64,000 nucleotides of DNA, from the NCBI GenBank assembly GCA_040905715.1, contig JBBDRA010000003.1:7075-71074 (forward strand). Direction: 5' to 3'. Each line of letters opens with the position of its first letter. The stretch's first letter is position 1. The notes beneath the pieces are model-generated. The model worked only from the letters and a program-made list of their open reading frames with translations, was not told the DNA's origin and did no database searches. The stretch comes from Minisyncoccota bacterium. GTDB lineage: Bacteria > Patescibacteriota > Minisyncoccia > Phycocordibacterales > CSBR16-193. Positions 7,060-39,946 of this stretch are shown here, piece after piece. A program made the translations under genes and the position numbers.

Positions 7060-7112
7060 GGGCTAGAAGTGTATATGCTACACTACACGTTGTTAAATCG
7101 ATTGCAATACGT

Positions 7113-23681: not shown

Positions 23682-25391
23682 ATGATCCAGGACATCCTGA
23701 AAGACACAATTAGCGAAGCGTTGCAACAGATCGGTATTGCTGACCCGGAGGTTGAGCTGGAGCACCCGGCCGATCTTGCACACGGTGATTTTTCAACGAA
23801 TGTGGCGATGAGATATGCCAAAGAGCAGGGTAGCAGTCCGCGAGATATTGCTGAAAAAGTCATTTCTCTTATTGAAGAGAGTAAGCCTTCTTTCGTAAAC
23901 AAAGTAGAGATCGCCGGCCCCGGTTTTATTAATTTCTTTTTAGCACGTGATTTCTTTGCAAAGTCACTAGAGGATATTGCTGCTCATGCAATGGATTTTG
24001 GCAGGAGCGAGGTTCTTGAAGGAAAGAGAGTGTTGGTCGAATACACCGATCCGAACCTCTTCAAAGAGTTTCATGTCGGTCACATTATGAATAATACGGT
24101 CGGCGAAGCGATCGCAAATCTCTTTGAGAGCCAAGGCGCGTCAGTCGTGCGAGCTAATTACCAGAGTGATGTTGGTCCGCCTGTTGCTAAAGCGATCTGG
24201 GGAATGCGCCAGCTTGCTCATAAAATGCCGAAAGATGACGCGCCGCTTATCGAGAAGGTGCGATTTCTCGGTGACTCGTATGTTACCGGTAGTGCGGCGT
24301 ACGAAGAAGGCAGCTCCAAAGAAGAGATCGACGCGATCAATACGCACATATATGAACGTGATAACGACGAGCTAAATGAGCTCTACAAATGGGGTCGTAC
24401 CGTAAGCCTGAATCATTTTGAAGAGATCTACAAAAAACTCGGCACACGGTTTGATTGTTATTATTTCGAAAGTCAGGTTTTTGAAGACGGACTCAAACTT
24501 GTGGAGGAAGGGAAAGAAAAAGGTGTTTTCAAAGAGTCGGATGGCGCGATCGTGTACCACGGTGAAGAGGATGGATTGCATACGCGCGTGTTCGTAAATG
24601 CGCGCGGTTTGCCAACCTACGAGACCAAGGAGCTCGGGCTTACCAAGCAGAAATTTGAAACCGAAACATACGAGCAATCGGTCGTGGTAACAGCAAACGA
24701 GCAGACATCGTACTTTCAAGTGGTGATGGCCGCGCTTACCAAGCTTTATCCGGAGTGGGTTAAGAGAACGAAGCACATAGAGCACGGCATGCTCCAGACG
24801 CCGGATGGCAAGATGTCGTCGCGAAAAGGCAATGTAATCGGCGGCGGGACACTCATCGAAGATGTTGAAGCTCGGGCCAACGAAAAGATACAGGAAACTG
24901 ACCGTGATCTTGAAGACCCCGATATATTGGCGACCCAGGAAGCGGTCGCGGCGATCAAGTACGCTATTTTAAAGCAGGCGCCGGGTAAGAACGTGACGTT
25001 CGATATGGAGCAATCACTCTCGTTGGAAGGAGATTCCGGACCGTATCTACAGTATGCACATACTCGCTGTTACTCGATCCTGGCAAAAGCAAAGACAGAA
25101 GGAATTGTGGCATCGATCGAGAATCCACCGGCCGAGTCGTATGAGTTGGAGCGAGTACTGTATCGATTCCCGGAGATCGTCGAGAAGGCATTTAGCGATC
25201 TTTCTCCGCAGTATGTTACAACGTACCTGACCGAACTTGCCTCCATGTTCAATAGTTTTTACGGCACCGAGCAGATAGTAAATGTAGATGATGAGTTCTC
25301 GCCGTACAAACTCGCGCTCACTCGAGCTACGCAAACCGTTCTCGCCAACGGACTCAATGTTCTTGGCATCGAAGCTCCTGAGCAAATGTAG
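23682..25391 (+). CDS. argS: Arginyl-tRNA synthetase
   Basis: Class I HIGH-type motif FHVGHIMN; N-terminal Arg-tRNA-binding domain; C-terminal DALR anticodon-binding domain; 569 aa. Confidence 0.9.
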   Translation: MIQDILKDTISEALQQIGIADPEVELEHPADLAHGDFSTNVAMRYAKEQGSSPRDIAEKVISLIEESKPSFVNKVEIAGPGFINFFLARDFFAKSLEDIAAHAMDFGRSEVLEGKRVLVEYTDPNLFKEFHVGHIMNNTVGEAIANLFESQGASVVRANYQSDVGPPVAKAIWGMRQLAHKMPKDDAPLIEKVRFLGDSYVTGSAAYEEGSSKEEIDAINTHIYERDNDELNELYKWGRTVSLNHFEEIYKKLGTRFDCYYFESQVFEDGLKLVEEGKEKGVFKESDGAIVYHGEEDGLHTRVFVNARGLPTYETKELGLTKQKFETETYEQSVVVTANEQTSYFQVVMAALTKLYPEWVKRTKHIEHGMLQTPDGKMSSRKGNVIGGGTLIEDVEARANEKIQETDRDLEDPDILATQEAVAAIKYAILKQAPGKNVTFDMEQSLSLEGDSGPYLQYAHTRCYSILAKAKTEGIVASIENPPAESYELERVLYRFPEIVEKAFSDLSPQYVTTYLTELASMFNSFYGTEQIVNVDDEFSPYKLALTRATQTVLANGLNVLGIEAPEQM

Positions 25392-25488
25392 ACTTGAATT
25401 ATTGTGTTTGAACTGCTGGTGTGGTATGACCATATCAGCGGTTCTTCATGTTCCATGAAATTAAGATAAATACGAAAGGGGGCTACCA

Positions 25489-26511
25489 ATGGTAGCGCTT
25501 GCAGATCTAGCAGAAGAACGTGCACGTCTCGATAGAGAGCTTGGTCGGGTTTGGGGAGGGTCCGGGGTGCGAAATCTTTGCCTTGAGGGGTACTGGTTTC
25601 ACAAACCGATCAAACTGGGGCACCCGCGAGGCTTTTCCTTTAAAGGTCTTGAAGAGGTCGCCAAGACAACAACACTTCTTCCAAACGCGGGTCGAATGCC
25701 ACTGAATAAGCGCAATCAGCCAAAGGAGTGGTCTCCCAACTGTATCTGGGTTGATCGAAAACGGAGCATCGCACTCAACGCGATCGGACTTTCCGGTCCG
25801 GGAGCGAAAGTGGTTTTCGAAAAACTCCAGAAGCTTCGACATCGTTTTCAACCGTCAATTATGGCGATCGGCACAACGCTAGAGGAGCGACTTGCCGAGA
25901 TGCGGCTCCTGATGAAGTTGATCGTGGAGCACTTCTCGTATGAGCAAGTTCCGATCGTTCAGATCAATGTTTCGTGCCCGAATCTTGAGCACGGCTTTGA
26001 TCCAATAAACGAACGGATCGTAGAGACTCAGAATATCCTGGACATCGTGTACGAGTACGGTCGCTTCGCGGTGATCAAGCTTAGTGCGGACTTCCTGCCC
26101 GAGCGGGTGATGGAGTTTGCTGAGCACCCGGCGTTGTTCGGTATCAGTGGCACAAATACTATTCCGTTCCGTATGATCATCCCGTGGCTTCCCGAAGATC
26201 ATGAATGCCAGATCCCATGGGATGAACTTTTCGGCGTCGGACAGCCATCTCCGCTTCGTGCTCGCGGGATCGATGCTGATGGCGGTCTTTCGGGCGCACC
26301 GCTCAAAAACCTCGCCTGTTTGTGGATCGGTCGGATCCGAAAAGCGGGGTTCAGGAGGCACCTGAACGGAGGTGGCGGTATTTTGCATCCGAATGATATT
26401 GAGTCCTTCCGTGTTGCAGGTGTTGACTCGATCTCGCTCGGTTCGGCTGCGTTTCTTGCTTCAGCGCAAGTGCAACCGATCATCCGGTACGGAAATAAAA
26501 TTCTATCCTAA
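25489..26511 (+). CDS. Dihydroorotate dehydrogenase family (PyrD-like) TIM-barrel protein with atypical N-terminus
   Basis: NAIGLSGPG, NVSCPN, GGLSGAPL, NGGGGI motifs alignable to class 1 DHODH. Confidence 0.6.
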   Translation: MVALADLAEERARLDRELGRVWGGSGVRNLCLEGYWFHKPIKLGHPRGFSFKGLEEVAKTTTLLPNAGRMPLNKRNQPKEWSPNCIWVDRKRSIALNAIGLSGPGAKVVFEKLQKLRHRFQPSIMAIGTTLEERLAEMRLLMKLIVEHFSYEQVPIVQINVSCPNLEHGFDPINERIVETQNILDIVYEYGRFAVIKLSADFLPERVMEFAEHPALFGISGTNTIPFRMIIPWLPEDHECQIPWDELFGVGQPSPLRARGIDADGGLSGAPLKNLACLWIGRIRKAGFRRHLNGGGGILHPNDIESFRVAGVDSISLGSAAFLASAQVQPIIRYGNKILS

Positions 26512-26527
26512 AATAAGGAAGAAGCTG

Positions 26528-27679
26528 ATGGAACTAATACGAGACAGCGCTGGAGTTGTGTGTGAGATCAGAATGCGTCGACCTGACAACTTCCACGCCC
26601 ACTACCGACAGAACGGGATGCTCCAGCTCATGGTGCTTCTATTCTTGCGGTATGGTTGGGGACGGGTTGAGGCAATGCCTAATAATCCGTTCATTGACAC
26701 CGGTCAGAAAGCTATAAAATATCGTTATGAGGCGATGCGTATCGCGCGAGCGAATGAATCCCGCTTTAATTATTCCGAGTTTGAGATGGTGCCGTCGATG
26801 CAGATCACGCCTGAGACAACACCGCAGATGGTGCTCGAGGCGTGGCGGCTCGGTGTTCGGATCTTTAAGATCTACCCGCGTTTCGTCACTACCGCCTCTG
26901 AAAACGGCGTTATTGATTACAAAGCACTTTACTCGGTTTTTGCAGAGATGGAGCGGATCAATACGCACGTGGTGGGAAAAGAGTTTCCTCATCCGTGTGT
27001 GTTGTCGCTTCACCCTGAGGACCCGAATGAGAATGTTGAGCCGTTCGACAAGGAGTCGGCTTTCATCGACAATCACGCTCACGATATCGTTCTTCGTTTC
27101 CCGGGATTACCGATCGTCTTCGAGCATATCTCGACAAAGGCGCTCGTGGATTTCGTGAAAAGCGACAATGCAGCTCGGAGAAATATCGCGGCAACGATCA
27201 CGCCTCAGCACATGATACGTACATACGCGGATCTGCTGGGGTATACACCTGCTTCGAATTTCAAGCTGCAGGTGGATGACTTTTGCAAGCCGGTCCTTAA
27301 GCCGCGTGAGGATCGTGATGCGGTTCGTGAAGCGGCAATGAGCGGTAATCCGAAGTTCTTTTACGGCGGAGACGACGCGCCGCATCCGGTAGGGAGCAAG
27401 GATTGCCGGGAGTGCTGTGCCGGTACGTTCAACACTGATGCCGGACTGCGGGTTTGTGTTGAAGAGTTCTATCAGCACAAGAAGCTCGAAAATCTTGACC
27501 CTTTCTTCTCAGAAAGCGGCGCTCGGTTCTACAGTTTCCCTCAAAACAAAGGAAAAATTACACTCAGACGTGAACCGTCAGTGGTTCCTGAGATGCATGT
27601 TATTCCGTGTGACGAGGGAGAGGCTCGTCCGTGGCTGGCCGGTGAAACGCTTCCCTGGAGCATCACCGCCATTCACTGA
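26528..27679 (+). CDS. pyrC: Dihydroorotase, class II (E. coli PyrC type)
   Basis: IRRPDNFHAHYR, VFEHISTK, AATITPQH, GGDDAPHP..CCAG, LAGETLPWSI all align with E. coli PyrC; RBS AAGGAAG. Confidence 0.85.
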   Translation: MELIRDSAGVVCEIRMRRPDNFHAHYRQNGMLQLMVLLFLRYGWGRVEAMPNNPFIDTGQKAIKYRYEAMRIARANESRFNYSEFEMVPSMQITPETTPQMVLEAWRLGVRIFKIYPRFVTTASENGVIDYKALYSVFAEMERINTHVVGKEFPHPCVLSLHPEDPNENVEPFDKESAFIDNHAHDIVLRFPGLPIVFEHISTKALVDFVKSDNAARRNIAATITPQHMIRTYADLLGYTPASNFKLQVDDFCKPVLKPREDRDAVREAAMSGNPKFFYGGDDAPHPVGSKDCRECCAGTFNTDAGLRVCVEEFYQHKKLENLDPFFSESGARFYSFPQNKGKITLRREPSVVPEMHVIPCDEGEARPWLAGETLPWSITAIH

Positions 27680-27706
27680 TCAACCTTTGTTCGTTTCTCA
27701 ATTCAA

Positions 27707-27746
27707 TACCACACCCTGTCGATCCGTCGACGGGGTGTTTTTTTGC
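27707..27746 (+). terminator. Rho-independent terminator
   Basis: acaccctgtcgatccgtcgacggggtgttttttt. Confidence 0.85.
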
Positions 27747-27760
27747 ACAAAGGGTGAAAA

Positions 27761-30700
27761 TTGGTAGTATTAGCCGTATACATGACTACTTGCAAAGACG
27801 AAAATACAAAAAGCGAACTGGCCAAGCGAGAGGAGGAGATACTCAAGCAGTGGCAGGAAAATAGCATATTTGAAAAAACGCTTGAGCAGACCAAGGGCGG
27901 GGAGGAGTTTGTATTTTATGAGGGGCCGCCGACCGCCAACGGCCGACCCGGCATTCATCATCTTGAGGCGCGCGCATTTAAGGACGCTATTCCTCGGTAC
28001 AAAACAATGCGGGGCTATCATGTCCGCCGCAAAGGTGGCTGGGACACGCACGGCCTGCCGGTTGAGCTTGAGGTAGAGAAGCAGCTTGGCCTTACATCGA
28101 AAAATGAAATTGAGGAATACGGTATCGAGAAGTTTAACGAAAAGTGCCGTGAGAGTGTCTGGACGTACGTAAACGAGTGGCGATCTTTTACAGAGCGAAT
28201 CGGGTTCTGGGTTGATTTGGACGATCCGTACGTTACGTATCAGCCGGATTACATGGAGTCAGTGTGGAATGTTCTTGGCCAGGCAAACGAGCGCAAGCTT
28301 CTCTACAAAGACTATAAGGTATTGCCGTGGTGTCCACGGTGCGGTACCGCGCTTTCGAGTCATGAACTAGCGCAAGGATACGAAACGGTCAAGGACCTAT
28401 CGGTGTATGTTGCCTTTAAGATAACCGATAGAGACGAGTACCTTCTGGCCTGGACCACTACTCCGTGGACGCTCCCGGGAAATGTCGCGCTTGCGGTTTC
28501 GAAAGAAGTTGAGTATGTACTCATAGAAGTTGAGGGCAAAAAGGTGTGGTTAACCAAGGATCGGCTTGAGCATGTTGCCCCGGAAGCGGTTGTAGAAAAA
28601 GAGGTGAAAGGGGGCGAACTAGTCGGTCTCGCCTACGAGCCGCTTTACGCGTATCTCAAAGATAATCTTCCCGAGAGCGAGAAAGAGAAACTTGCGAACG
28701 CCTTTCAGGTCTATGATGCAGATTTTGTAACCACTGAGGATGGTACCGGTATTGTGCACACCGCTGTGATGTACGGGCAGGATGACTTTGAGCTTGGTTC
28801 TCGAGCGGGTCTTCCAAAATTTCACTTGGTGAAAGAGAATGGCACGTTTATCCCGGAGACAGACTTTCTTGCCGGGCGTTTTGTTAAAGATGAATCCACC
28901 GATGTTGAGATCATCAAAGACCTTGCTCATCGCGGGCTTTTGGTTAAGAAAGAAAAAGTTGAGCACACCTATCCGCACTGTTGGAGGTGTAAAACACCGC
29001 TTATTTATTACGCACGTGGATCATGGTATATCCGCATGTCAGAGTTGCGTGATGAGTTGGTTAAGGAGAATCAGGAAATTAATTGGGAACCGGAGCATAT
29101 TCGCGACGGTCGTTTTGGCGAGTGGTTGAGTGAAGTAAAGGACTGGGCGATCTCGCGCGAGCGGTATTGGGGCACACCGCTGCCGATCTGGACCGATGAG
29201 AGCGGAGACGAGGTCGAGGTAGTTTCTTCGCGGGAAGATCTCCATAAAAAAGCGCCGGAGAAGGTGGTCAAAGTATTTTTTATGCGACACGGAGAGAGTG
29301 TGAAGAATGTTACGCATACGTTTGACAGCGGGCAAGCCGATTTTCCGCTGACCGAAAAAGGAAAAGAAGAAGCGAAGCGCGCGGGAGAAGAACTAAAAGA
29401 TGCCGGTATTGATCTGGTTGTTACTTCACCGATCCAGCGAACACTCGAGACTGCCGAGATCGTAGCCGGTGAGCTAGGGGCTGAGTTGGTGGTGGAGGAA
29501 GGGCTTTCTGAGATCAAAAGCGGGAGTTGGGACGGCAAGAAACTTGACGATGAATCGATCAAGGAAAGCCGTGCAACCTACTGCGCGCTTGGTCCGGAGG
29601 ATTATTATACTGCTCCGCGCGGAGAGACAGGAGAGAGCTGGAAGGAGATCGAGGCGCGTGCGTTCGGTGCGGTGAGTAAGGTGATAGACGAAAATCCCGG
29701 CAAGACAGTTCTCTTTGTAGCGCACCAGGGTATTGTGGTGTATGCGCTTAAGCCACTTAAAGGGTGGGATATTGTTGAAACCCGCAATGAGCGTGTTTAC
29801 GACAAAGAGTTCCATGCTCATGCTCACCCTGTTCTTGTATACATAGACCGAGAGCGAAAACGTGAACTTGACCTGCACCGACCATACATTGACGCTATTA
29901 CATACGAAAAAGACGGAAAGGAAATGAAACGAGTTCCGGAAGTGATGGATGTATGGTTTGACTCAGGGTCGATGCCGTTTGCCCAAGATCACTATCCGTT
30001 TGAGAATAAAGAGCGTCTTGAGGCAGGAGGCTATCCGGCTGACTTTATATCTGAGGCGATCGATCAAACTCGTGGCTGGTTCTATACACTTCACGCTATC
30101 GGGGCGATAATGGGCTTCGGCAAGGCGTACAAGAATGTAATTTCTCTTGGTCATATTCTTGATGCAGAAGGAAAGAAGATGTCGAAATCGAAAGGGAATA
30201 CAGTAGATCCCTGGGAGCTCATGGATAAATACGGTGCGGATGCCCTTAGATTTTGGATGTACTCGGTCAACCAGCCCGGTGAGCCGAAGAATTTTGTAGA
30301 GCAAACTGTGGATGAGGTAGTTAAGAAAGTGTTCAATCTGGCTTCTAACACAGCTCGGTTCTATGAGATGTACAAAGATTCTGATGACGGAACCGATCCG
30401 GACAAGACCGACGTGCTTGATCAGTGGATCGAAAGTTATACCAACAAGGTGGTTCAGGATGTTACGGATGATCTTGAAAATTACAAGCTTCTTGAAGCCA
30501 GCCGATCCATTCGTGAATTCATTACCGATCTCTCCCAATGGTACCTCCGTCGTTCTCGTGATCGGATAAAGGAAGGTGATCAAGCCGCGCTTTCAACGTT
30601 GCGCCAGACATTGCTGACACTCGCAAAACTTCTAGCTCCGTTTGCGCCGTTCTTTGCCGAGGATCTCTATAGTCGAGTTGGTGGCGGAAAGGAAAGTGTT

Positions 30701-31207
30701 CATATGGAAAGCTGGCCGAAGGGCCCTCAACCCGATGAGCAAGTGCTTACTAATATGGAAAAAGTTAGAGAGATCGTCACACAAGCGCTTGAATTGCGGG
30801 CGAAGGCAGGAGTGAAAGTTCGCCAGCCGTTGGCAGTGTTGACGATCGCTGAAGACATGGATGAAGCATATCGGGCGATCATTGCCGAGGAAGTGAATGT
30901 GAAGGAGGTGGCGGTTGGCAATGAGCTTGCGCTTGATACCGAATTCACCGATGAACTTAAGCAAGAAGGCGCTGTACGTGAGCTTGTTCGTGCAATTCAA
31001 GGGCTTCGCAAGGACTCCGGCATGAATCCGAGCGACAAGGCCACTCTTGCTGTCTCCACGGACGAGGCGGGCGCACAATTGATCGAGCAGTACCGAGACG
31101 AAGTTACCAAAACAACGAACCTTTCAGAGGTAACGTATGGCGATGTTGCTCAAGGAAAAAGTGTGGAGGCGAATAGCTATTCGTTCACTATTGATCTTCA
31201 TATATAA
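27761..31207 (+). CDS. ileS: Isoleucyl-tRNA synthetase (type 2) carrying an embedded histidine-phosphatase (PGAM-like) domain
   Basis: Class I motifs PPTANGRPGIHH and KMSKSKGN; editing domain; DWAISRERYWGTPLPIW, then an ~200-aa insert before DLHRPYID..DVWFDSGSMPF; TTG start at 27761 (an ATG alternative lies at 27782). Confidence 0.85.
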   Translation: MVVLAVYMTTCKDENTKSELAKREEEILKQWQENSIFEKTLEQTKGGEEFVFYEGPPTANGRPGIHHLEARAFKDAIPRYKTMRGYHVRRKGGWDTHGLPVELEVEKQLGLTSKNEIEEYGIEKFNEKCRESVWTYVNEWRSFTERIGFWVDLDDPYVTYQPDYMESVWNVLGQANERKLLYKDYKVLPWCPRCGTALSSHELAQGYETVKDLSVYVAFKITDRDEYLLAWTTTPWTLPGNVALAVSKEVEYVLIEVEGKKVWLTKDRLEHVAPEAVVEKEVKGGELVGLAYEPLYAYLKDNLPESEKEKLANAFQVYDADFVTTEDGTGIVHTAVMYGQDDFELGSRAGLPKFHLVKENGTFIPETDFLAGRFVKDESTDVEIIKDLAHRGLLVKKEKVEHTYPHCWRCKTPLIYYARGSWYIRMSELRDELVKENQEINWEPEHIRDGRFGEWLSEVKDWAISRERYWGTPLPIWTDESGDEVEVVSSREDLHKKAPEKVVKVFFMRHGESVKNVTHTFDSGQADFPLTEKGKEEAKRAGEELKDAGIDLVVTSPIQRTLETAEIVAGELGAELVVEEGLSEIKSGSWDGKKLDDESIKESRATYCALGPEDYYTAPRGETGESWKEIEARAFGAVSKVIDENPGKTVLFVAHQGIVVYALKPLKGWDIVETRNERVYDKEFHAHAHPVLVYIDRERKRELDLHRPYIDAITYEKDGKEMKRVPEVMDVWFDSGSMPFAQDHYPFENKERLEAGGYPADFISEAIDQTRGWFYTLHAIGAIMGFGKAYKNVISLGHILDAEGKKMSKSKGNTVDPWELMDKYGADALRFWMYSVNQPGEPKNFVEQTVDEVVKKVFNLASNTARFYEMYKDSDDGTDPDKTDVLDQWIESYTNKVVQDVTDDLENYKLLEASRSIREFITDLSQWYLRRSRDRIKEGDQAALSTLRQTLLTLAKLLAPFAPFFAEDLYSRVGGGKESVHMESWPKGPQPDEQVLTNMEKVREIVTQALELRAKAGVKVRQPLAVLTIAEDMDEAYRAIIAEEVNVKEVAVGNELALDTEFTDELKQEGAVRELVRAIQGLRKDSGMNPSDKATLAVSTDEAGAQLIEQYRDEVTKTTNLSEVTYGDVAQGKSVEANSYSFTIDLHI
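29270..29865 (+). other. In-frame histidine phosphatase superfamily (phosphoglycerate-mutase-like) domain inserted within IleRS
   Basis: FFMRHGESVKN (RHG catalytic His motif), SPIQRTLETAEIV, second His region VAHQGIVVYAL; flanked by canonical IleRS segments. Confidence 0.75.
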
Positions 31208-31259
31208 TTCTAGTTGGAATACGGCAGATAGCTTTTATCATTAACGCAAGGAGAATCTC

Positions 31260-31520
31260 ATGTCGAGTACTGTGTACGGATTGCGCATGATGGTGGCTTT
31301 GTTCTTCTTTCTTTTGCCGTTCGCGTTCGCCGGTGTCCTTGTTGTGAGTGCGCCTGATGGAGTGATTTTTCAGTGGTTTAAGTTATTTGAAGGGTCAACA
31401 CACCTGGAAGGAACCTTGCTCCTTATTCCCTGGGGTACGGCCGCCGCGATCGCCGGTCATACGCAAGGATGTCGTGACCGAACCATCGCAGCACAGCAGA
31501 AAGATGACCCTGTGTTATGA
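31260..31520 (+). CDS. Small hydrophobic membrane protein (86 aa)
   Basis: AAGGAG RBS; two predicted TM segments. Confidence 0.45.
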   Translation: MSSTVYGLRMMVALFFFLLPFAFAGVLVVSAPDGVIFQWFKLFEGSTHLEGTLLLIPWGTAAAIAGHTQGCRDRTIAAQQKDDPVL

Positions 31521-31619
31521 ATTCTTTCGCTAAAGAACTTCTCAGGTTGTTTCCGCTCGCACCAAATGGTGTCGGGCGGTTTTCTAAATACGAAATACTA
31601 GATACTATATACTGACTAT

Positions 31620-32231
31620 ATGGAATACCGTCTCTACACTACCCCTGCTTTTGTGCTCGCCCGAACGCCCTCGGGTGAAGCAAATAGCCGTGTCTGGTTT
31701 CTCACCAGAGATCTGGGTCTTATTCAAGCAAATGCCCAGGCGGCGCGATCATTGGCAAGCAAACACCGCTACGGCCTGCAGACCCTATCGCTCTCGGTAG
31801 TTTCGGTAGTTCGTGGAAAAAGCGGTTGGCGGGTGACGAGCGTAATGCCGCAGTACTCATATTATTCGCGCTTGAATAGTTCAACAGCTGCTGTGGATGT
31901 GGCGGCGAAAGTGGCGCTCGCTTTGCGCACCTTGTGTGCCGGTGAGGAGCATCAGCCTGAGCTGTTCACTATTTTTACTGAGGTAGTGAATAGTCTTTCA
32001 GAAGATTCTCTTAATTATAAAGAGTGTCGAGCCATTGAGTGTATTGCCTTGTTGCGTATACTCTCGCGTCTTGGTTACGTGGGCGACGATAAACTCCTTA
32101 TTCCGTTTACTTCCTCGTCCGGATTTGATCAACCGTTGATTCAGAAGGTAACAGAACATAAGAGGAACATTATTCGAACGATCAATAAAGCTTTTGAAGC
32201 AAGTCACCTGGTTTCCGCACGCTACGCGTAG
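31620..32231 (+). CDS. recO: DNA repair protein RecO-like (N-terminal OB-fold)
   Basis: AFVLARTPSGEANSRVWFLTRDLGLIQANAQAAR matches the RecO N-terminal pattern; 203 aa. Confidence 0.55.
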   Translation: MEYRLYTTPAFVLARTPSGEANSRVWFLTRDLGLIQANAQAARSLASKHRYGLQTLSLSVVSVVRGKSGWRVTSVMPQYSYYSRLNSSTAAVDVAAKVALALRTLCAGEEHQPELFTIFTEVVNSLSEDSLNYKECRAIECIALLRILSRLGYVGDDKLLIPFTSSSGFDQPLIQKVTEHKRNIIRTINKAFEASHLVSARYA

Positions 32232-32268
32232 CCACTGTTGGGGCGAGGTGGTATAATTTCAATTATCT

Positions 32269-34443
32269 ATGGCTGATCGAGAGGGCGATAACAAACTTGA
32301 AAAGGCGCAGAATCGACTATATTCTCGCGATTACAATGAACCGGATTCAAATCGCCGAAGCGGTTTTGAAGAGGATGATGAGCCGGTTAGACGCAATTGG
32401 GACGACTTGCACGCGCAAGAACAAGAAACAGTAGAGGCTCAAGAGCCGGACCCGCAGGACCGGTCAGAAGAGCAAGTAGACGAGCAGCCTTCAGAACAAA
32501 CCCTTTCAGAAACCACCGAAGAACAAACTGAAGAACAAATCGAAAAACAAACTGAAGATCAACCCCAAGGATACTCTGAAGAACCACAAGAGAGATCGCC
32601 GGAGGCACGTTCGGTACAAGACTCGTCAGCCGATCGAGAGGCGGTGAGCGTGAGCGCTGGAGTAGACGAGAAACCCCGGGGCTCCCGCACGGACAGCTTT
32701 TTTAATACATTATTCTGGCTGTCGCTAGCTTTTTTCGTGCTAGCGATCAGCGGTGCAGTAGCACTCTTTTTAACCGGCTCTTTTTTCACGTCCGGCGACA
32801 ATGTGCTGGTTAGAGTTGAGGGACCAACATCCGTAAGTGGAGCAGAAGATAGTGAGTTCGATATTATTGTGGCAAATAACAACGACACCGGATTGACCAA
32901 CGCAAAGCTTACCGTTACGTACCCTGAGGGCGCCCGATACACAGATGATCTGGGCCGCAAAAAAGCACGCGAAGTGGTGGTACTCGATACGGTTGATCCG
33001 GGCCAACAGATCCGAGCCACGATCGATACGACTATCATAGGAAGAGCTGATACGACCGAGACAATAACACTTTCCCTTGAGTACGGGCTTGAAAATTCAA
33101 GCGCAACGTTTGTAAAGGAGACGGAATACGATGTTGCTATCACAAATGCTCCGATCGATGTTTCTATTAGTTCCCCGACCGAAATAAACAGTAATCAGCC
33201 GGTCACCTTTGATCTAACGATCAGTTCGAACACGAGTAAGCAATTGGAGAACCTGTTACTGGTCACTCAGTATCCGTTCGGGTTCAGTTTGCGAAGCGCT
33301 GACCCTGAGGCGAGCGACGGCGACACGGTCTGGGAGATAGGCACCCTTGAGCCCGGGGAAGAAAAGAACATTCGAATATCCGGTCCTTTGCAGGCGCAGG
33401 AGAAGGAACAGCGAACATTTACGTTCAGTATCGGTATTGCCGATGAGAACCGAAGGGAAACCCTGGCGCACGTGCTCGATGAAACCAAACGAACGCTATC
33501 GATCAACGCACCGTACTTAGACCTCGACGCGACATTTCAGAACATGACACCGGAAGAGTTCGTCGGGGAAGTCGGCGACAATATCAGAGCTGATATATCA
33601 TGGAAAAATAATTTAGACGAACGGATTGCTGATGTTGAATTGATAGCGACACTCGGTGGAAATGCCTTTTCACGCGAATCGGTTCAGGTGGATCGTGAAG
33701 GATTTTATCGATCTTCTAATAATGAAGTTGTCTGGAACATGAGCACGAACCCGGCTCTTTCTTCAATGGATAGCAATGAGCAAGTAAATGTTAATTTCCT
33801 TTTTGCTTCACAGAAAGAGATATCATCAGGGTCAGCAGATGTTGCTAATCCACACATCACCGTTGAGCTCGAAGCGATCGGCAATCAGTTTACAGACGCA
33901 GAACTTCCTGAAACCGTAAGTACAGCACATAGCTTTTTGTTGAAGATGAACACGGTCATGGATATCGAGGCTCACGCGGTCTACAGTGACGGACCGTTCG
34001 TAAACACGGGTCCGGTGCCGCCTGTTGCCGATAAGCCGACAACATTTACCGTTGTTGTGAACGCGCTTAATCGCTATAACGATGTAGAGGATGCGGAGTT
34101 CACTGCCCGCTTACCAACCTATGTTGAATGGACCGGTAATACCACAAACGATGAGGTTATCTCATATAACAGTAATACTCGTGAAATTCGATGGAACATT
34201 GGAGAGTTGAGAAGGCAGAGTGGGCATGCGCTGTCCGCTGAGCAGGTCGCGTTTCAGGTTGAGGTTACACCAAGTATTAGTCACATCGACGAACAGCCGG
34301 AGATCGTGACGGATGGTTTACTGCTTGGTCGTGATACGTATACTGAGCAGGATCTTCGTGTGCAGCCTCGCGATGTGACAACGAACTTGGAGATCGATCC
34401 CCAATACTCAGCCCGTCGTGACGGCACAGTGCGAGCACGCTAA
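32269..34443 (+). CDS. Large membrane-anchored surface protein with an acidic disordered N-terminus and repeated Ig-like (CARDB/DUF11-like) domains
   Basis: Cytoplasmic acidic/Q-rich N-terminus; one TM (LFWLSLAFFVLAISGAVALFL); ~100-aa repeats with T/N/S-rich beta patterns. Confidence 0.55.
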   Translation: MADREGDNKLEKAQNRLYSRDYNEPDSNRRSGFEEDDEPVRRNWDDLHAQEQETVEAQEPDPQDRSEEQVDEQPSEQTLSETTEEQTEEQIEKQTEDQPQGYSEEPQERSPEARSVQDSSADREAVSVSAGVDEKPRGSRTDSFFNTLFWLSLAFFVLAISGAVALFLTGSFFTSGDNVLVRVEGPTSVSGAEDSEFDIIVANNNDTGLTNAKLTVTYPEGARYTDDLGRKKAREVVVLDTVDPGQQIRATIDTTIIGRADTTETITLSLEYGLENSSATFVKETEYDVAITNAPIDVSISSPTEINSNQPVTFDLTISSNTSKQLENLLLVTQYPFGFSLRSADPEASDGDTVWEIGTLEPGEEKNIRISGPLQAQEKEQRTFTFSIGIADENRRETLAHVLDETKRTLSINAPYLDLDATFQNMTPEEFVGEVGDNIRADISWKNNLDERIADVELIATLGGNAFSRESVQVDREGFYRSSNNEVVWNMSTNPALSSMDSNEQVNVNFLFASQKEISSGSADVANPHITVELEAIGNQFTDAELPETVSTAHSFLLKMNTVMDIEAHAVYSDGPFVNTGPVPPVADKPTTFTVVVNALNRYNDVEDAEFTARLPTYVEWTGNTTNDEVISYNSNTREIRWNIGELRRQSGHALSAEQVAFQVEVTPSISHIDEQPEIVTDGLLLGRDTYTEQDLRVQPRDVTTNLEIDPQYSARRDGTVRAR

Positions 34444-34484
34444 CGGTTTGGCGGAAGCGATAAGTATGATATGCATAAGAGTCT

Positions 34485-35870
34485 ATGACCAATACCACCA
34501 CACAACCAACACTTGAAGATATTGTTTCACTGGCGAAGCGCCGAGGATTCATCTACCCTGGTTCAGAGATCTACGGGGGGCTTGCCGGTGCCTATGACTA
34601 CGGCCCGCTCGGTGTAGCGCTGAAGAACAACGTCAAGCAGCTTTGGTGGAAGCGTTTCGTGGACGGGCGGGATGATATGTACGGTGTCGACGCCTCGATC
34701 TTAATGAACAGAAAAACATGGGAAGCGAGCGGACACGCCGCCGGATTCGCCGACCCGCTCGTGGAAGACCTTGAGACAAAACAGCGATATCGAGCTGATC
34801 ATCTTCTTGAAGATGCTGAGATCGATCCGTCAGGGATGGACTTTGCCGCCATGAGTGCCGCGATACGTGACAACAATATTAAAAGCCCTGAGGGCAACGA
34901 GCTGTCTGATGTTCGTGAATTTAATATGATGTTTCAAACATCAGTCGGCGCAACGAGTGGAGAGGAAGGGAAAACGTACCTTCGACCGGAGACCGCGCAG
35001 GGAATTTTTGTGAACTTTAAAAACATTGTTGACTCGCTCTACCCGAACTTCCCGTTCGGTATCGCTCAGGTTGGTAAAGCGTTCCGCAATGAGATCGCTC
35101 CGCGAGATTTTGTGTTCCGAACGCGTGAATTTGAACAGATGGAAATAGAGTACTTTATCCGAGAAGAGGAATGGGAGCAGTGGTTTGAATACTGGCGCGA
35201 GCAAATGTGGGGCTGGGTTGATGATATCGGTCTCACGAAAGAAAAGGTGCACGAGCTAGAGGTCCCCGACACCGAGCTTGCGCATTATTCAAAGCGTACG
35301 ATCGATTTTGAATATGATTATCCGATCGGTAGAAAGGAGCTGTACGGCTTAGCCTACCGAACCGACCACGATCTCAAGCAGCACATGGAGCACTCCGGCG
35401 TCAGTCTTGAGTACACCGACAAGCAGACCTCTGAGCGATTCATCCCGCACGTGATCGAGCCGTCGCTTGGGTTGGATCGAACGGTTCTGGCGCTCTTGTG
35501 CGACGCATATCAGGAAGACGAAGTGAACGGGGAGAAGCGAATGTATCTGGCGTTCAAGCCGGATGTTGCACCGGTACGAATGGCGGTCTTTCCGCTTTTG
35601 AAGAACAAGCCGGAATTGGTAGAGAAGGCAAGAGAGGTCTTTGCCCTGCTTAAAGCAGAGTTTGGCCGGGTCTGGTTCGATGATAATGGCAACATCGGTA
35701 AGCGGTATCGACGGCAGGACGAGATCGGAACCCCGCACACGATAACGATAGACTTCGATACCCTTGAAGGAGGGGAGAACGGCGAGAAGGACACGGTCAC
35801 CGTCCGTGACCGGGACACAGCAGCGCAGGAGCGAGTTTCAATTTCTGAGTTAATTCAGAAATTGAAATAG
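34485..35870 (+). CDS. glyQS: Glycyl-tRNA synthetase (dimeric alpha2 class II form)
   Basis: RRGFIYPGSEIYGGLAGAYDYGPLG N-terminus and class II motifs; 461 aa. Confidence 0.9.
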   Translation: MTNTTTQPTLEDIVSLAKRRGFIYPGSEIYGGLAGAYDYGPLGVALKNNVKQLWWKRFVDGRDDMYGVDASILMNRKTWEASGHAAGFADPLVEDLETKQRYRADHLLEDAEIDPSGMDFAAMSAAIRDNNIKSPEGNELSDVREFNMMFQTSVGATSGEEGKTYLRPETAQGIFVNFKNIVDSLYPNFPFGIAQVGKAFRNEIAPRDFVFRTREFEQMEIEYFIREEEWEQWFEYWREQMWGWVDDIGLTKEKVHELEVPDTELAHYSKRTIDFEYDYPIGRKELYGLAYRTDHDLKQHMEHSGVSLEYTDKQTSERFIPHVIEPSLGLDRTVLALLCDAYQEDEVNGEKRMYLAFKPDVAPVRMAVFPLLKNKPELVEKAREVFALLKAEFGRVWFDDNGNIGKRYRRQDEIGTPHTITIDFDTLEGGENGEKDTVTVRDRDTAAQERVSISELIQKLK

Positions 35871-35896
35871 AAGGTAAGAATATGATTCAACAACCA

Positions 35897-35931
35897 AACC
35901 ACCGTTCGATCACGTCGAACGGTGGTTTTTC
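35897..35931 (+). terminator. Rho-independent terminator
   Basis: accaccgttcgatcacgtcgaacggtggtttttc. Confidence 0.85.
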
Positions 35932-35956
35932 CGTATTACGTAAAGGCCGGTTACAA

Positions 35957-36000
35957 ATATTAGAGTTAACTCTAATATAACTCTAATATAACTCTAATAT
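35957..36000. repeat. Palindrome plus 3x tandem 11-mer (aactctaatat) upstream of the M16 peptidase gene; iteron/operator-like
   Basis: atattagagtt|aactctaatat perfect inverted repeat, then two further direct copies. Confidence 0.6.
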
Positions 36001-36053
36001 TTAAAATTCACGTATTTTCTGCTACACTACGGCCACTCTATAAGCCACCTTTT

Positions 36054-37325
36054 ATGAAAGCTAACAAAAAGATACTCAAGAACGGCATGCGTCTTATAAC
36101 CGTGCCGATGAAAGACAACCCGGCGGTAACCGTAATGGCAATGACCGAAACCGGGTCAAAGAACGAGACGGATGAGACGAGCGGTATTGCTCACTTTCTC
36201 GAGCACATGTGTTTTAAAGGCGGCAAGAAATACACAAGTCCGCGAGAGGTAAGTACGGCGCTTGATAAGCTCGGCGCTGAATCAAACGCAATGACCGGTC
36301 ATGAATACACCGGCTATTACGGCAAGGCGCACCCGAAACACTTCAAAAAGATCCTTGATGTTGTTGCGGATATCTATATACATACTCGCCTGGACGAGGA
36401 CGAGATGGAAAAAGAGCGGGGAGTGATCCTCGAGGAGATAAACATGTACGAGGATTTTCCACCACGTCATGTTGCTGACCTGTTCTATCAATTGATCTAT
36501 AAAGGTCAGCCAGCCGGTCGACCGATCTTGGGTCCACGCGAGAACATTAAACAAATGTCTCGGGAAACATTTCTTGAGTTTCATCAGACACACTACGTCG
36601 CTGAGAAGACGATCCTCTTTGTTGCTGGTGAATTTGACCAAAAAGAAGTAGTTAAGGAAGTGGAGAAAGCATTCGCACAGATCCCCTCATCCAAGGCGCC
36701 GAAAATGCCGAAAACAGTCGAGAAGCAGGTGGCGCCACAGCTATTTATTCAACAGAAGAAGACCGATCAGATGCACTTTATGCTTGGGGTACGGGCATAC
36801 AAAGCAAAAGACAAGCGGGTCCCGGCGTTGAATGTTCTTAAAACAGTGCTCGGTGGCGGTATGTCGAGTCGCTTGTTTCTGAAGCTTCGCGAAGAAATGG
36901 GAGTTTGCTACTACGTAAAAGCACCGCTTGGTTTGCATATCGACCACGGCTATCTCGGTGTTGCTGCCGGAGTAGATAAAAACCGGCTTGAGGAAGTATT
37001 AGGAGAGGTTATGGGAGAAATGAATCGTCTTAAAGATGAATTGATCGACGAGAAGGAGCTTAAAAAAGCCAAGGATTATATTATCGGCAATATGTCGCTC
37101 GGACTTGAGACATCGGACTCTGTCGCTGATTTTTTTGCCGAGCAGGAGATAATGGAGGGCGGGATCTTGAGAACACCTAATCAAGTGATACAAGAGATTC
37201 GTGCGGTGACTGCTAAAGATGTACAAAAAGTTGCTCGAGATATCTTTAAAAACGAAAAATTAAATATGGCGGTCGTGGGGGATGTAAAAGACGAGGCAAA
37301 GGTTAAGAAAGCACTTAAGATCTAG
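36054..37325 (+). CDS. M16 family zinc peptidase (insulinase/pitrilysin-like)
   Basis: HxxEH inverted zinc motif HFLEHMCFKG plus downstream Glu; 423 aa. Confidence 0.85.
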   Translation: MKANKKILKNGMRLITVPMKDNPAVTVMAMTETGSKNETDETSGIAHFLEHMCFKGGKKYTSPREVSTALDKLGAESNAMTGHEYTGYYGKAHPKHFKKILDVVADIYIHTRLDEDEMEKERGVILEEINMYEDFPPRHVADLFYQLIYKGQPAGRPILGPRENIKQMSRETFLEFHQTHYVAEKTILFVAGEFDQKEVVKEVEKAFAQIPSSKAPKMPKTVEKQVAPQLFIQQKKTDQMHFMLGVRAYKAKDKRVPALNVLKTVLGGGMSSRLFLKLREEMGVCYYVKAPLGLHIDHGYLGVAAGVDKNRLEEVLGEVMGEMNRLKDELIDEKELKKAKDYIIGNMSLGLETSDSVADFFAEQEIMEGGILRTPNQVIQEIRAVTAKDVQKVARDIFKNEKLNMAVVGDVKDEAKVKKALKI

Positions 37326-37367
37326 TTGCTTTTCTCCTAGCACGCGTCCGTGCTCAATGGTAGGATA

Positions 37368-38465
37368 ATGGTTATGATAAACGAACAGCCCTCCAACACA
37401 CCTCGCACTCATACGATGATTTCCATCAGCTTGAATACCGTTCTGATGATCGTCGGGGTTGCTCTCACGCTCTTAGCCGCGTATTTGTTGCGCGATCTTG
37501 TGTTGGTTGTATTTGCTGCGGTTGTTATCGCGGTGGCGGTAGAGCCGGCTATTCAGTGGTTTCATCGTCGAAAAGTACCGAGACTTCCCGCGGTTATCAT
37601 TATCTATTTGATCATTGCTACTATTTTTGTCGGAGTGATCGCGTTTCTTTTGCGACCTCTTATCGGACAGGCCATGGAATTTTTGAATTCACTACCGGAG
37701 TACTGGCAGTCTCTACAGGCGTGGGCGTCTATGCAAACCGGGGGCAGTGTTGGAACCGGAGGAGAGGCTCTATCTATACAGGAGGTTTCACGAGAGTTGC
37801 GTGATTCGCTCACCGGTCTGTCCGGCGGCGCGTTAAGTGTTATTTCTAATGTGTTTGGCGGTGTGTTGAGTTTTGTTTTGATCGCTGTGCTGTCGTTTTA
37901 TCTTTCGGTCCAAGAGAATGGAGTCACGGACTTCTTGCGCATGGTTACGCCGACTCGCTATGAGCCATATGTGCTTGGTCTATGGAAACGTGCCGAGCGA
38001 AAGATCGGCCTGTGGATGCAGGGACAGTTGATCCTGGTGGTGATCATCGGTGTTTTGACATACATTGGTTTGACCTTGCTTGGTGTCGAGCACGCGTTGC
38101 TCCTTGCGGTGCTGGCCGGAGCATTTGAGATTATTCCGCTTTTCGGTCCGATTCTGGCAGCGATTCCGGCGATCCTGATCGCGTTTACAACCGAAGGCGT
38201 TACTCTGGCGCTTCTGGTAACCGGGCTGTATGTTGTTATACAGCAGCTTGAAAACCACGTGATCTATCCGATGGTAGTGAAGAAGGTGGTCGGCCTCTCG
38301 CCAATAGTGATCATTATCGGCCTGGTTGCCGGTGGTCAGCTCGGCGGGTTTCTCGGTATTCTTCTGGCTGTACCGATAGCGGCGATCTTGATGGAGATCA
38401 TAAATGACGTACAGGAAGGAAAAGAGATGCGATCAAAGAGGATGGAACCGGAAGGATCTGAGTAG
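37368..38465 (+). CDS. AI-2E family transporter (PerM/YhhT, UPF0118)
   Basis: Eight-TM pattern; conserved YVVIQQLENHVIYPMVV segment; start at 37368 (ORF opens at 37350). Confidence 0.75.
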   Translation: MVMINEQPSNTPRTHTMISISLNTVLMIVGVALTLLAAYLLRDLVLVVFAAVVIAVAVEPAIQWFHRRKVPRLPAVIIIYLIIATIFVGVIAFLLRPLIGQAMEFLNSLPEYWQSLQAWASMQTGGSVGTGGEALSIQEVSRELRDSLTGLSGGALSVISNVFGGVLSFVLIAVLSFYLSVQENGVTDFLRMVTPTRYEPYVLGLWKRAERKIGLWMQGQLILVVIIGVLTYIGLTLLGVEHALLLAVLAGAFEIIPLFGPILAAIPAILIAFTTEGVTLALLVTGLYVVIQQLENHVIYPMVVKKVVGLSPIVIIIGLVAGGQLGGFLGILLAVPIAAILMEIINDVQEGKEMRSKRMEPEGSE

Positions 38466-38500
38466 GAAACCTCTACCTAACTAATCGTTACGTGACCGAA

Positions 38501-39946
38501 ATGAATACACAAACACCATTTTATATCACTACAACGCTGCCATATGTAAACGCCAGTCCGCATATCGGTTTTGCCATGGAGTTAGTGCGTGCAGACATTA
38601 TTGCTCGGTACAAACGTCAGGCGGGTTTTGATGTGTTTTTTAACACCGGCACAGACGAGCATGGTGCAAAGATCCACGAGAAGGCGCTCGAGAAAGGCAT
38701 TGAACCTCAGGAATACGTTGACGAGGCAGCAGAAAAGTTCAAGGATCTGATCGATCTCCTCAACATTTCACCAGAGGTTCATTTCATTCGTACGACCGAT
38801 GAGCGTCACGTAAAAGCAGCGCAAGAGTTTTGGAGGCGGTGCAACGAGAACGGCGATATCTATAAAGGAACCTACAAGGTGAAATACTGTGTGGGCTGCG
38901 AACTCGAGAAGACGGAATCCGACCTCGACGAGAGCGGTCACTGCCCGATTCATCCGAATCGCGAGCTCGAGGTTCGCGAAGAGGAGAACTATTTCTTTAA
39001 GTTTTCCGCGTATGCTGAAAAGTTGCTCGATCTGTATACTAGCACGCCGGACTTTGTGATCCCTGACTTTCGTCTGGGTGAAATACGGGCATTTGTAGAG
39101 CGCGGGCTCACTGACTTTAGTATCTCTCGGGTGAAGGAGAAGATGCCGTGGGGGATCGAGGTGCCTGGTGATCCTGACCATGTGATGTATGTATGGTTCG
39201 ATGCGTTAGTGAACTACGTCTCAACACTTGACTGGCCGATCGAGTCAGAGATGTTCGAGAGGTACTGGAAGAATGGCACGCCAACCCAGTACGCCGGCAA
39301 GGATAACCTGCGCCAGCAGTCTGCCATGTGGCAAGCAATGCTCATGTCGGCCGGTTTACCTGCTTCTCGCCAGATCGTGATAAATGGTTTTATTACCAGC
39401 GGTGGTCAGAAGATGTCGAAGTCGACCGGTAACGTGATCAGTCCGCAGGAGATAGTTGAGGTATACGGTGCTGATGCACTGCGCTACTACTTAGCGCGAG
39501 AGTTGCAGTCGTTCGAAGATAGCGACTTTACCCAAGAGCGATTTCGCGAGGTCTACAACGCTAACCTCGCAAACGGTCTTGGGAACCTGGCTAGTCGGAT
39601 CATGAAAATGGCTGAGACGCACCTAACGACCGCCCCGATACTGCCGGCACAAGTGTATGAGCAGGATTTCCAGGAAGCATTGGAGCGATTCGATCTTCAG
39701 CGAGCAACAGACATCATCTGGGAGAAGATCCAAGCTATGGACGGAAATATCCAGGAGACAGAGCCGTTCAAACTGGTTAAAACTGATCTAGAGCAAGCCA
39801 AAGCTATTATTAGCGACCTCGTGATCGATCTGTATAAAGTAAGTCAGATGCTTGCTCCGGTCATGCCGAGTACGTCAGCGGCAATTCAAGAGGCGGTCAA
39901 GACGAACACAAAGCCGGAAACACTTTTTCCTCGCCGAGAAGAGTAG
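38501..39946 (+). CDS. metG: Methionyl-tRNA synthetase (short form)
   Basis: PYVNASPHIGF (HIGH-type) and KMSKS (QKMSKSTGN) motifs; zinc knuckle CVGCELE..HCPIH; ATG at 38501 (ORF opens with GTG at 38492). Confidence 0.85.
   Translation: MNTQTPFYITTTLPYVNASPHIGFAMELVRADIIARYKRQAGFDVFFNTGTDEHGAKIHEKALEKGIEPQEYVDEAAEKFKDLIDLLNISPEVHFIRTTDERHVKAAQEFWRRCNENGDIYKGTYKVKYCVGCELEKTESDLDESGHCPIHPNRELEVREEENYFFKFSAYAEKLLDLYTSTPDFVIPDFRLGEIRAFVERGLTDFSISRVKEKMPWGIEVPGDPDHVMYVWFDALVNYVSTLDWPIESEMFERYWKNGTPTQYAGKDNLRQQSAMWQAMLMSAGLPASRQIVINGFITSGGQKMSKSTGNVISPQEIVEVYGADALRYYLARELQSFEDSDFTQERFREVYNANLANGLGNLASRIMKMAETHLTTAPILPAQVYEQDFQEALERFDLQRATDIIWEKIQAMDGNIQETEPFKLVKTDLEQAKAIISDLVIDLYKVSQMLAPVMPSTSAAIQEAVKTNTKPETLFPRREE

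Follow-up and report, generated by a model that had tools for sequence, protein, structure and literature searches.

A complete histidine phosphatase domain at the tip of the CP3 hairpin of type-2 isoleucyl-tRNA synthetases of Patescibacteria

The gene examined in this work, ileS, lies in a stretch of 64,000 nucleotides from a Minisyncoccota bacterium (assembly GCA_040905715.1, contig JBBDRA010000003.1, positions 7,075 to 71,074), which we call the window and to which all coordinates below refer. It encodes a type-2 isoleucyl-tRNA synthetase (IleRS2) carrying a histidine phosphatase at the tip of its third connective polypeptide (CP3), a structurally plastic hairpin; this architecture and its conservation in relatives are practically certain. 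An earlier note, made by a reader who saw the letters of the window and little else, had described an isoleucyl-tRNA synthetase (IleRS) with an in-frame PGAM-like insert between the WxISRxRYWG block and DVWFDSG, and the Pfam family PF00300, the NCBIfam model TIGR00392 and the structural models all agree with that description. Here we set out what the insert is, where it sits, how widely it occurs and what it might be doing inside a synthetase.

Results

The inserted His_Phos_1 domain, a PhoE/CobC-like member of branch 1 of the superfamily, occupies aa 499-701 (29255..29863, plus strand, as are all features of ileS given below) and matches PF00300 with E=1.7e-38. The match itself runs over aa 505-677 and profile positions 1-169 of 194, with 132.7 bits against a gathering threshold of 21.7. 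Both families that the earlier note had named for a profile search were thus found, with tRNA-synt_1 split in two (27-501 and a later part) around His_Phos_1. The same note had placed the insert at 29270-29865; the in-frame insertion stands, whilst its bounds are now revised to ~29255-29863.

The site can be located precisely in the synthetase fold. The linker between CP2 and CP3, DWAISRERYWGTPLPIW (aa 461-477; 29141..29191), has a yeast counterpart that lines the pocket for the tRNA CCA end: the segment 453-ARDWNVSRNRYWG-465 of yeast IleRS is part of the tRNA CCA/reveromycin pocket (PMC7955072). CP3 begins directly after this linker with its N-terminal half, TDESGDEVEVVSSREDLHKKA (29192..29254), from which the CxxC of the zinc knuckle has been lost, and ends beyond the insert with its C-terminal half, ELDLHRPYIDAITYEKDGKEMKRVPEVM (29864..29947), from which the CxC has been lost as well. 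The conserved DLHRPYID (aa 704-711) falls inside this second half, in the stretch starting ELDLHRPYID at 702-729. The alignment to Priestia megaterium IleRS2 (8C8W, E=1e-248) stops after residue 478 of that protein and restarts at its residue 485, so that ~203 residues stand in place of a 6-residue turn (479-484). CP3 binds zinc in the IleRS of Thermus thermophilus, and its topology differs among solved IleRS, in which three kinds occur (PMC7191050).

Every residue expected of a working histidine phosphatase is present, and the full signature claimed earlier was recovered, all its motifs lying where they had been reported and the RHG and His residues being there on inspection. The catalytic triplet R509-H510-G511 (29285..29293), within FFMRHGESVKN (506-516), supplies in H510 the predicted phospho-acceptor nucleophile. 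N516 (29306..29308) belongs to the phosphate pocket and is 98% conserved in IleRS-embedded copies of the domain, and R560 (29438..29440), the second phosphate-binding arginine, lies in SPIQRTLETA, within aa 556-568 (SPIQRTLETAEIV), and is conserved in 100% of them. The predicted general acid/base, E584 of LSEIKSGSWDG (29510..29512), is found in 97% of the IleRS-embedded copies and aligns with the glutamate of PhoE LREIHLGDWEG; the second catalytic histidine, H655 of VAHQG (29723..29725), is again conserved in 100%.

The fold points in the same direction. An AlphaFold (AF2) model of the insert alone has a mean predicted local distance difference score (pLDDT) of 95.6 and a predicted template-modelling score (pTM) of 0.92, and Foldseek pairs it with CobC, PhoE, PspA and cofactor-dependent phosphoglycerate mutases (dPGMs) at a probability of 1.00. 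Phosphatases of ~200 aa superpose with template-modelling (TM) scores of 0.70-0.79 and root-mean-square deviations (rmsd) of 2-3 Å, the best being CobC (TM 0.76-0.79), with PhoE at an rmsd of 2.1 Å. By sequence, the best matches in the PDB are PhoE (1EBB/1H2E; E=7e-21, 77.7 bits, 31% identity), followed by CobC and PspA.

Several more specific identities were considered and rejected. The best dPGM model, NF038349, gives 80.6 bits, where its cut-off is 225, and covers only about the first 100 residues, and further dPGM models give 33-45 bits against cut-offs of 305-421; the domain has ~195-200 aa compared with the 230-250 of a mutase, and dPGMs superpose with TM scores on the target of 0.59-0.68 and an rmsd of 4-8 Å. 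The CobC equivalog model (TIGR03162) scores the insert alone at 93.6 bits against a cut-off of 162.9, and the NCBIfam models of PspA and SixA likewise stay far below their cut-offs, that of SixA matching the N-terminal part of the insert weakly (E=5e-10) and under its cut-off. Given these scores, the best relatives and the structural fit, the insert belongs, as an unassigned member, to the phosphatase side of the superfamily and is no mutase. That it is a catalytically active phosphatase is very probable.

The open reading frame runs uninterrupted from 27761 to 31207. The insert junctions, ...HKKA|PEKVV... and ...RERKR|ELDLH..., are free of Cys/Ser/Thr or His-Asn splice residues, and a Pfam scan found no intein or Hint match inside the frame, as the earlier note had expected in arguing that the segment is no intein. 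Its further view that this is no frameshift fusion is borne out by the single frame and by relatives from other assemblies: an identical partial protein (P0001) and proteins of 82% and 77% identity all stem from such assemblies, which excludes a local assembly or frameshift artefact. An intein does occur elsewhere in the window, in recA (44462-46597, minus strand), where it serves as a positive example for comparison; it carries a LAGLIDADG homing endonuclease, with RecA at aa 20-214, LAGLIDADG_2 at 328-500 and RecA_C at 649-706.

The architecture is shared by a large family. PF00300 and the IleRS domains occur together, with the insertion at the identical site, in all of the 120 best homologues (52-100% identity), and those with a name are all Patescibacteria (Paceibacterota, Taylorbacteria, Vogelbacteria); the search of related genomes that the earlier note had proposed thus returned the same insertion throughout and, as described below, in several sites and copies and in a second synthetase. 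A scan of GTDB species genomes gave a sample of listed matches, with taxon names drawn from the titles of metagenome-assembled genome records, in which the spacer between ISRxRxWG and DxWFxSG could be measured. It is 57-67 aa, without His_Phos, in about 55 IleRS2 from other phyla among the matches listed, and equally so in Saccharimonadales (L072) and two Patescibacteria-like genomes (L011, L012). Among the matches listed it is 245-272 aa, with His_Phos, in Paceibacteria-type genomes and one Peregrinibacteria genome, and it reaches 445 aa, with two tandem His_Phos domains, in a Peribacteria genome (L016).

Within this family the linkers are constrained, with a median of 30 aa from the Trp to the RHG (interquartile range 30-31) and of 251 aa for the whole spacer (249-253). 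Mean identity to the query across the family is 33% in the insert as opposed to 62-69% in the synthetase core; in close relatives, insert and core are equally conserved (0.89 and 0.87). The catalytic residues are a different matter: the complete R-H-N-R-H set is kept by 131 of 133 IleRS-embedded copies compared with 178 of 195 free-standing enzymes, R502/H503/N509/R553/H648 are invariant in A1 (an alignment of 120 sequences, homologues of the window IleRS, whose numbering is used here), and the R and H of RHG are found in 99% of IleRS-embedded copies and in 98-99% of both ValRS-embedded (that is, in valyl-tRNA synthetase) and free-standing ones. By this evidence the insertion is ancient and has apparently been passed on with ileS across many Patescibacteria, under purifying selection on the catalytic residues. 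The zinc knuckle CxxC...CxC of CP3 is kept in 60 of 115 insert carriers and lost in 52, the window protein among them, and zinc binding by CP3 was evidently dispensable once the phosphatase had been acquired.

In a rough neighbour-joining tree of the IleRS cores, the non-carriers L011/L012, L072 and L077 fall among carriers. This interleaving does not fit a single gain of the insert without losses; the insert was lost in places or gained more than once, in a tree that is too crude for counting events. One locus shows an irregularity of its own: IleRS is matched by tblastn from position 4001 of L008 (JACPMA010000018.1, Candidatus Peregrinibacteria), whilst an open frame under translation table 11 exists only from 4556, a mismatch for which a stop codon in frame, a frameshift or a different genetic code could be responsible.

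The insert alone was also searched exhaustively against 1.84 billion representative proteins, followed by domain scans. Every synthetase host checked among the best 150 matches is either an IleRS or a ValRS, and none of the three other synthetases checked, which were those of the window (MetRS, ArgRS and one class II synthetase), has an insert. Several IleRS carry more than one phosphatase. Two or three tandem copies stand at CP3 in P0136, P0132 and L016; P0126 and P0129 have the CP3 copy and a second one past the KMSKS region, ahead of the anticodon-binding domain; and P0238 has copies at three sites. In P0162, one of a cluster of six with P0271-P0275 (on contigs of up to 1.06 Mb), CP3 is a normal zinc knuckle and the phosphatases occupy two different loops, one following DCWFESGSMPYA and one where the anticodon-binding domain begins. 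The extra copies, tandem and dispersed alike, retain R-H-(G/A). Between the two copies of L016 (CAYRXE010000008.1, Candidatus Peribacteria, locus 3866-8281) we find AMDLHKETVD, a relic of the DLH+P.ID flank, and this relic points to a tandem duplication in which the 3′ flank was copied along; P0136 is a second case of tandem copies in CP3.

The ValRS carriers repeat the pattern. P0184 (1538 aa; 849 bits with the valS model, whose cut-off is 704) carries a copy at the site homologous to CP3 and another after the editing domain, and in P0121 an N-terminal fragment of a ValRS precedes four tandem copies. Of the 120 best matches to P0184, about 70 have PF00300, carriers being common in the ValRS of Peregrinibacteria/Gracilibacteria, and 52 ValRS in the sample have a single copy at the site homologous to CP3. 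Among 88 ValRS-embedded copies, 23 have lost one or more catalytic residues. A segment of ~290 aa between the two copies of P0184 (aa 630-870) gave no match among the families tested. P0384 is a ValRS without the insert; its contig equals in length (439,541 bp) that of one member of the P0162 cluster, and the two may share a genome.

In a neighbour-joining tree of the domains themselves, the ValRS-embedded copies form one cluster and nearly all IleRS-embedded copies another, regardless of their site, with free-standing enzymes placed between the two. The tree is crude and effectively unrooted, and with this reservation it suggests one founding insertion in each enzyme, at the same hairpin, followed by tandem and dispersed duplication within the gene. 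Nearest among the free-standing enzymes are tandem di-domain phosphatases, uncharacterised and 405-430 aa long, of which the named ones are mostly from Chloroflexota. Fusions to GNAT acetyltransferases occur among the relatives of the free-standing phosphatases (P0466, P0467, P0470, P0472, P0476, P0480); that phosphatase and GNAT domains both recur around IleRS may be coincidence. The 64-kb window has no other His_Phos gene. We also looked for a free-standing His_Phos gene beside ileS in genomes without the insert, a Rosetta-stone test, and found none at the loci of Patescibacteria; the one match, in a Lachnospiraceae genome (L052), is on the opposite strand and looks coincidental.

The synthetase that carries the insert is complete. 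The frame counts 1148 aa from the listed TTG, which is the length given in the earlier note and is right for that frame; the true start is most likely, to judge from the family N-terminus and the upstream sequence, the ATG at 27782 (M8), so that ileS proper would be 27782..31207 and its product 1141 aa. TIGR00392 scores this product at 893.2 bits against a cut-off of 621.4, and Pfam finds Anticodon_1 at 887-1026 and DUF5915 (PF19302) at 1056-1146. The class I signature has the non-canonical form P-G-I-H-H (GXHH for HXGH; aa 63-67, 27947..27961), its P/H/H being invariant in A1. GXHH is functional in IleRS2 and confers up to 1000-fold higher mupirocin resistance (PMC10485003). The editing domain in CP1 keeps WTTTPWTLP (aa 231-239, 28451-28477; columns W224-L231 invariant in A1) and GTGIVHTA (aa 328-335, 28742-28765; G321/G323/V325/H326/A328 invariant), the Rossmann fold resumes with its second half at DVWFDSGSMPF (aa 730-740, 29948..29980), and the KMSKS loop motif follows at aa 806-810 (30176..30190), with K/M/S/K invariant in A1.

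The organisation of the C-terminus is that of type 2, with an ARD2/ARD3-type end and no zinc-binding domain there, both by the PF19302 end and by the best full-length structural matches, which are the IleRS2 structures 8C9D/8C8V and yeast 8WND. The AF2 model of the whole protein has a pLDDT of 92.3 and a pTM of 0.85, and in Foldseek none of the IleRS2 structures matching it contains the insert. As read from its motifs and models, the gene product is an intact, editing-competent type-2 IleRS, predicted to charge tRNA-Ile.

As for the surroundings, an inverted repeat rich in GC, with a T-run after it (ccgtcgacgg...ttttttt), separates ileS from the upstream gene at 27720-27746; since it resembles an intrinsic terminator, ileS may have its own promoter. 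Four aminoacyl-tRNA synthetase (aaRS) genes stand on one strand within 16 kb (23682-39946), namely argS, ileS, the gene of a class II enzyme of 461 aa, and metG; in between lie genes resembling those of pyrimidine metabolism, a RecO-like gene and one for an M16 peptidase.

Discussion

The aaRSs are among the most conserved enzymes, and the accessory domains of bacterial ones are usually tRNA binders or editing modules. What we describe here is an essential synthetase whose catalytic domain houses a complete enzyme of an unrelated superfamily, a pattern that current aaRS biology does not predict. Its parts are known, IleRS2 on the one hand and a PhoE/CobC-like histidine phosphatase on the other; their combination is not found in the literature searched, where no paper links isoleucyl-tRNA synthetase with a histidine phosphatase, and the earlier note was right to suspect that the architecture had not been described. 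A phosphatase is never mentioned in a 2026 preprint annotating the domain architectures of 96,219 IleRS sequences (bioRxiv 10.64898/2026.02.03.703510), nor in a phylogenetic and structural study of IleRS2 from 2023 (PMC10485003). Public databases label such sequences only as ‘class I tRNA ligase family protein’ or ‘isoleucine--tRNA ligase’.

The body of the window protein is that of the IleRS2 of P. megaterium (8C8V/8C8W/8C8U) and the IleRS of T. thermophilus (1ILE), with which it shares the split Rossmann fold, the CP1 editing domain, CP2, CP3 and KMSKS, the helical anticodon-binding domain and the type-2 C-terminal domains (Foldseek E=1e-89, TM ~0.76 on target). Even the GXHH motif has its equal in 8C8W, which is an engineered hyper-resistant mutant. 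The P. megaterium enzyme differs in having the 6-residue turn at the CP3 tip where the window protein has ~203 residues, and the latter is without the zinc cysteines of CP3. On the phosphatase side, PhoE of Geobacillus stearothermophilus has the same ~200 aa and the same RHG/Asn/Arg/Glu/His set, but it is free-standing, whereas the insert is internal and has both of its termini tied to a hairpin. The CobC alpha-ribazole-5′-phosphate phosphatase (6E4B, 6NRU; TIGR03162) gives the best TM score and is among the best NCBIfam matches, although nothing else in the case of the window IleRS suggests cobalamin metabolism.

Partial precedents exist. PRK07238, a bifunctional RNase H/acid phosphatase with a CobC-like C-terminal domain, shows that such a phosphatase can be fused to a nucleic-acid enzyme, though it is joined end to end and not inserted, and the insert scores 96 bits against its cut-off of 326. 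NF040702 (ileS_w_GNAT) is likewise an IleRS with an extra enzyme domain, but this domain is a GNAT; the window protein is no member, with 350.3 bits against a cut-off of 1999. Lineage-specific modules in surface loops of the class I aaRS core are familiar from the leucine-specific domain of LeuRS and the eukaryotic UNE-I. The INS subdomain in the ARD2 of IleRS2 is another module added to the synthetase core (bioRxiv 10.64898/2026.02.03.703510). These modules bind tRNA or partners and have no chemistry of their own, unlike the insert, which is a complete enzyme with its active site preserved.

Why, then, is the phosphatase there? The reading we put first, tentatively and at slightly less than an even chance, is that of an active phosphomonoesterase whose function is coupled to that of the synthetase. 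The polypeptide would be bifunctional: its synthetase half would charge tRNA-Ile in the ordinary way, whilst the insert, kept by CP3 in a fixed geometry, would hydrolyse a phosphomonoester through an intermediate phosphorylated on H510, with R509, N516, R560 and H655 gripping the phosphate and E584 acting as acid/base. The substrate could be a phosphorylated species of nucleotide type at or near the entrance for the acceptor end, for example a tRNA end that cannot be charged, bearing a 3′-(pyro)phosphate or a 2′,3′-cyclic phosphate, or a nucleotide or adenylate-like phosphate compound. The earlier note had likewise suggested that it could act on a tRNA end, on a nucleotide or adenylate phosphate or on a regulatory ligand. 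A coupling that goes beyond mere co-expression is argued for by the recruitment of the domain into both IleRS and ValRS, the two closest class Ia paralogues, at homologous sites in CP3 and by the later multiplication of its copies, and it is supported further by the constrained linkers and by the nearness, in sequence, of the insert to the linker of the CCA pocket.

That the reaction is specifically dephosphorylation of the tRNA 3′ end is a narrower and distinctly doubtful proposition. We see just as little likelihood in a device for repair or immunity acting in cis in the IleRS and ValRS of bacteria of the candidate phyla radiation (CPR), by which the substrate of the synthetase would be tidied up by the enzyme itself ahead of charging. 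Such a device would strip phosphate or pyrophosphate from the 3′-CCA end of a tRNA, as left by a toxin of the toxSAS type or by an antiphage system, or would destroy a phosphate-bearing inhibitor at the entrance to the active site. Pyrophosphorylation of the tRNA 3′-CCA by toxSAS does block aminoacylation and can be specific for particular tRNAs (PMC11559606), and members of the superfamily with broad specificity can, in vitro, take terminal phosphates off DNA and ATP (PMC2737285).

Several observations weigh against a coupling of this kind. The embedded domains are about as acidic as the free-standing ones (net charge -4.2 and -5.0, respectively, and -11 in the query insert) and thus give no sign of an acquired RNA-binding surface. 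We found no polar residues conserved specifically in embedded copies, where only the hydrophobic I550 and I567 are common to the embedded clades. Copies also stand at loops distant from one another in sequence (beyond DxWFxSG, beyond KMSKS and beyond the editing domain of ValRS), and up to four of them form arrays; a task that demands a single exact place at the CCA entrance sits badly with such a distribution. A repair confined to the tRNAs for Ile and Val would leave translation as a whole unrescued. Finally, some Patescibacteria do without the insert (L011, L012, L072), so it must be dispensable for IleRS function.

Much of this fits the main rival of a coupled phosphatase, which we consider somewhat unlikely: that the domain is an autonomous phosphomonoesterase of broad specificity, of the PhoE/GpmB/PspA type and mechanistically unlinked to aminoacylation, which landed in a permissive loop of an abundant, constitutive and essential protein of a streamlined genome and was retained for the phosphatase needs of the cell. 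The conservation of generic superfamily residues alone, the acidic charge resembling that of free-standing enzymes and a nearest solved relative, PhoE, of broad specificity would all be as expected, and one to four copies in several unrelated loops are what one would see if dosage alone mattered. The window has no other His_Phos gene, and CP3, with its three topologies in solved IleRS, is a hot spot of structural variation (PMC7191050). Such a hitch-hiker, however, leaves unexplained why IleRS and ValRS are the repeated hosts, where terminal fusions to arbitrary proteins might be expected, and why the linker lengths are so tightly constrained; nor does a free-standing copy adjoin ileS in the Patescibacteria without the insert.

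A regulatory module is improbable. SixA, PGAM5 and Sts-1 are protein phosphatases within the superfamily of histidine phosphatases, and the insert might in the same manner act on phospho-His, Ser, Thr or Tyr, reversing an inhibitory phosphorylation of the synthetase or a partner (e.g., by HipA-like kinases, which have aaRSs as targets), or it might sense a phosphorylated metabolite and tune IleRS by it. The conserved catalytic and phosphate-binding residues, the fixed position adjoining the entrance to the active site and the weak SixA match (E=5e-10) would be in keeping with such roles. Yet there is no evidence for a kinase partner, the insert is much closer to the ~200-aa metabolite phosphatases than to SixA, and arrays of several copies are not expected of a sensor.

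Slightly less probable again is a built-in immunity to antibiotics, in which the phosphatase might inactivate a phosphate-bearing inhibitor of IleRS or ValRS (e.g., an adenylate mimic) at the very place where the inhibitor binds, in analogy to the GNAT and HinT-type enzymes that detoxify aminoacyl-adenylate mimics. The occurrence of GXHH, the motif of mupirocin hyper-resistance (PMC10485003), throughout the family suggests past selection by antibiotics directed at IleRS, and a class of IleRS with an embedded GNAT (NF040702) and the GNAT fusions among relatives of the free-standing phosphatases could be seen in the same light. All this is wholly circumstantial, however, and histidine phosphatases cleave monoesters, not the diester or phosphoramidate linkages of adenylate mimics. 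To our knowledge, no inhibitor of IleRS or ValRS bears a phosphomonoester.

A purely structural role, with catalysis irrelevant and the insert replacing or buttressing the zinc knuckle of CP3 or mediating oligomerisation or complex formation, is very improbable. PGAM-like domains often dimerise, the nearest free-standing relatives are tandem di-domains, the zinc-binding cysteines of CP3 have been lost in about half of the carriers, and the ValRS-embedded copies that have lost catalytic residues (23 of 88) might be thought to serve in this way. But 131 of 133 IleRS-embedded copies keep all catalytic residues in spite of an identity of ~33% elsewhere in the domain, and the insert is no simple replacement of the knuckle, since 60 of 115 carriers have both. 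An artefact (assembly chimera, frameshift joining two genes, or intein) can be dismissed with near certainty, given canonical IleRS sequence on either side of the insert in one continuous frame, an architecture seen in more than 120 independent assemblies, the absence of a Hint match and of splice residues, and a confident AF2 model in which the insert is a folded excursion out of CP3.

In conclusion, the wide retention of the phosphatase in Patescibacteria, its parallel recruitment by two synthetases and its multiplication to up to four copies argue for a selective benefit tied to IleRS and ValRS. One practical consequence is that automated metabolic reconstructions of CPR bacteria could misread the insert as a glycolytic phosphoglycerate mutase. 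Were tRNA ends or inhibitors its substrate, the phosphatase would represent a new kind of quality control or defence linked to a synthetase, and, should the repair of the synthetase's own substrate be its task, a new class of aaRS accessory domain, catalytic, non-editing and substrate-repairing. If, on the other hand, it is a metabolic enzyme that merely hitch-hikes on its hosts, it would be a striking case of domain insertion as a strategy of genome streamlining in ultra-small symbionts.

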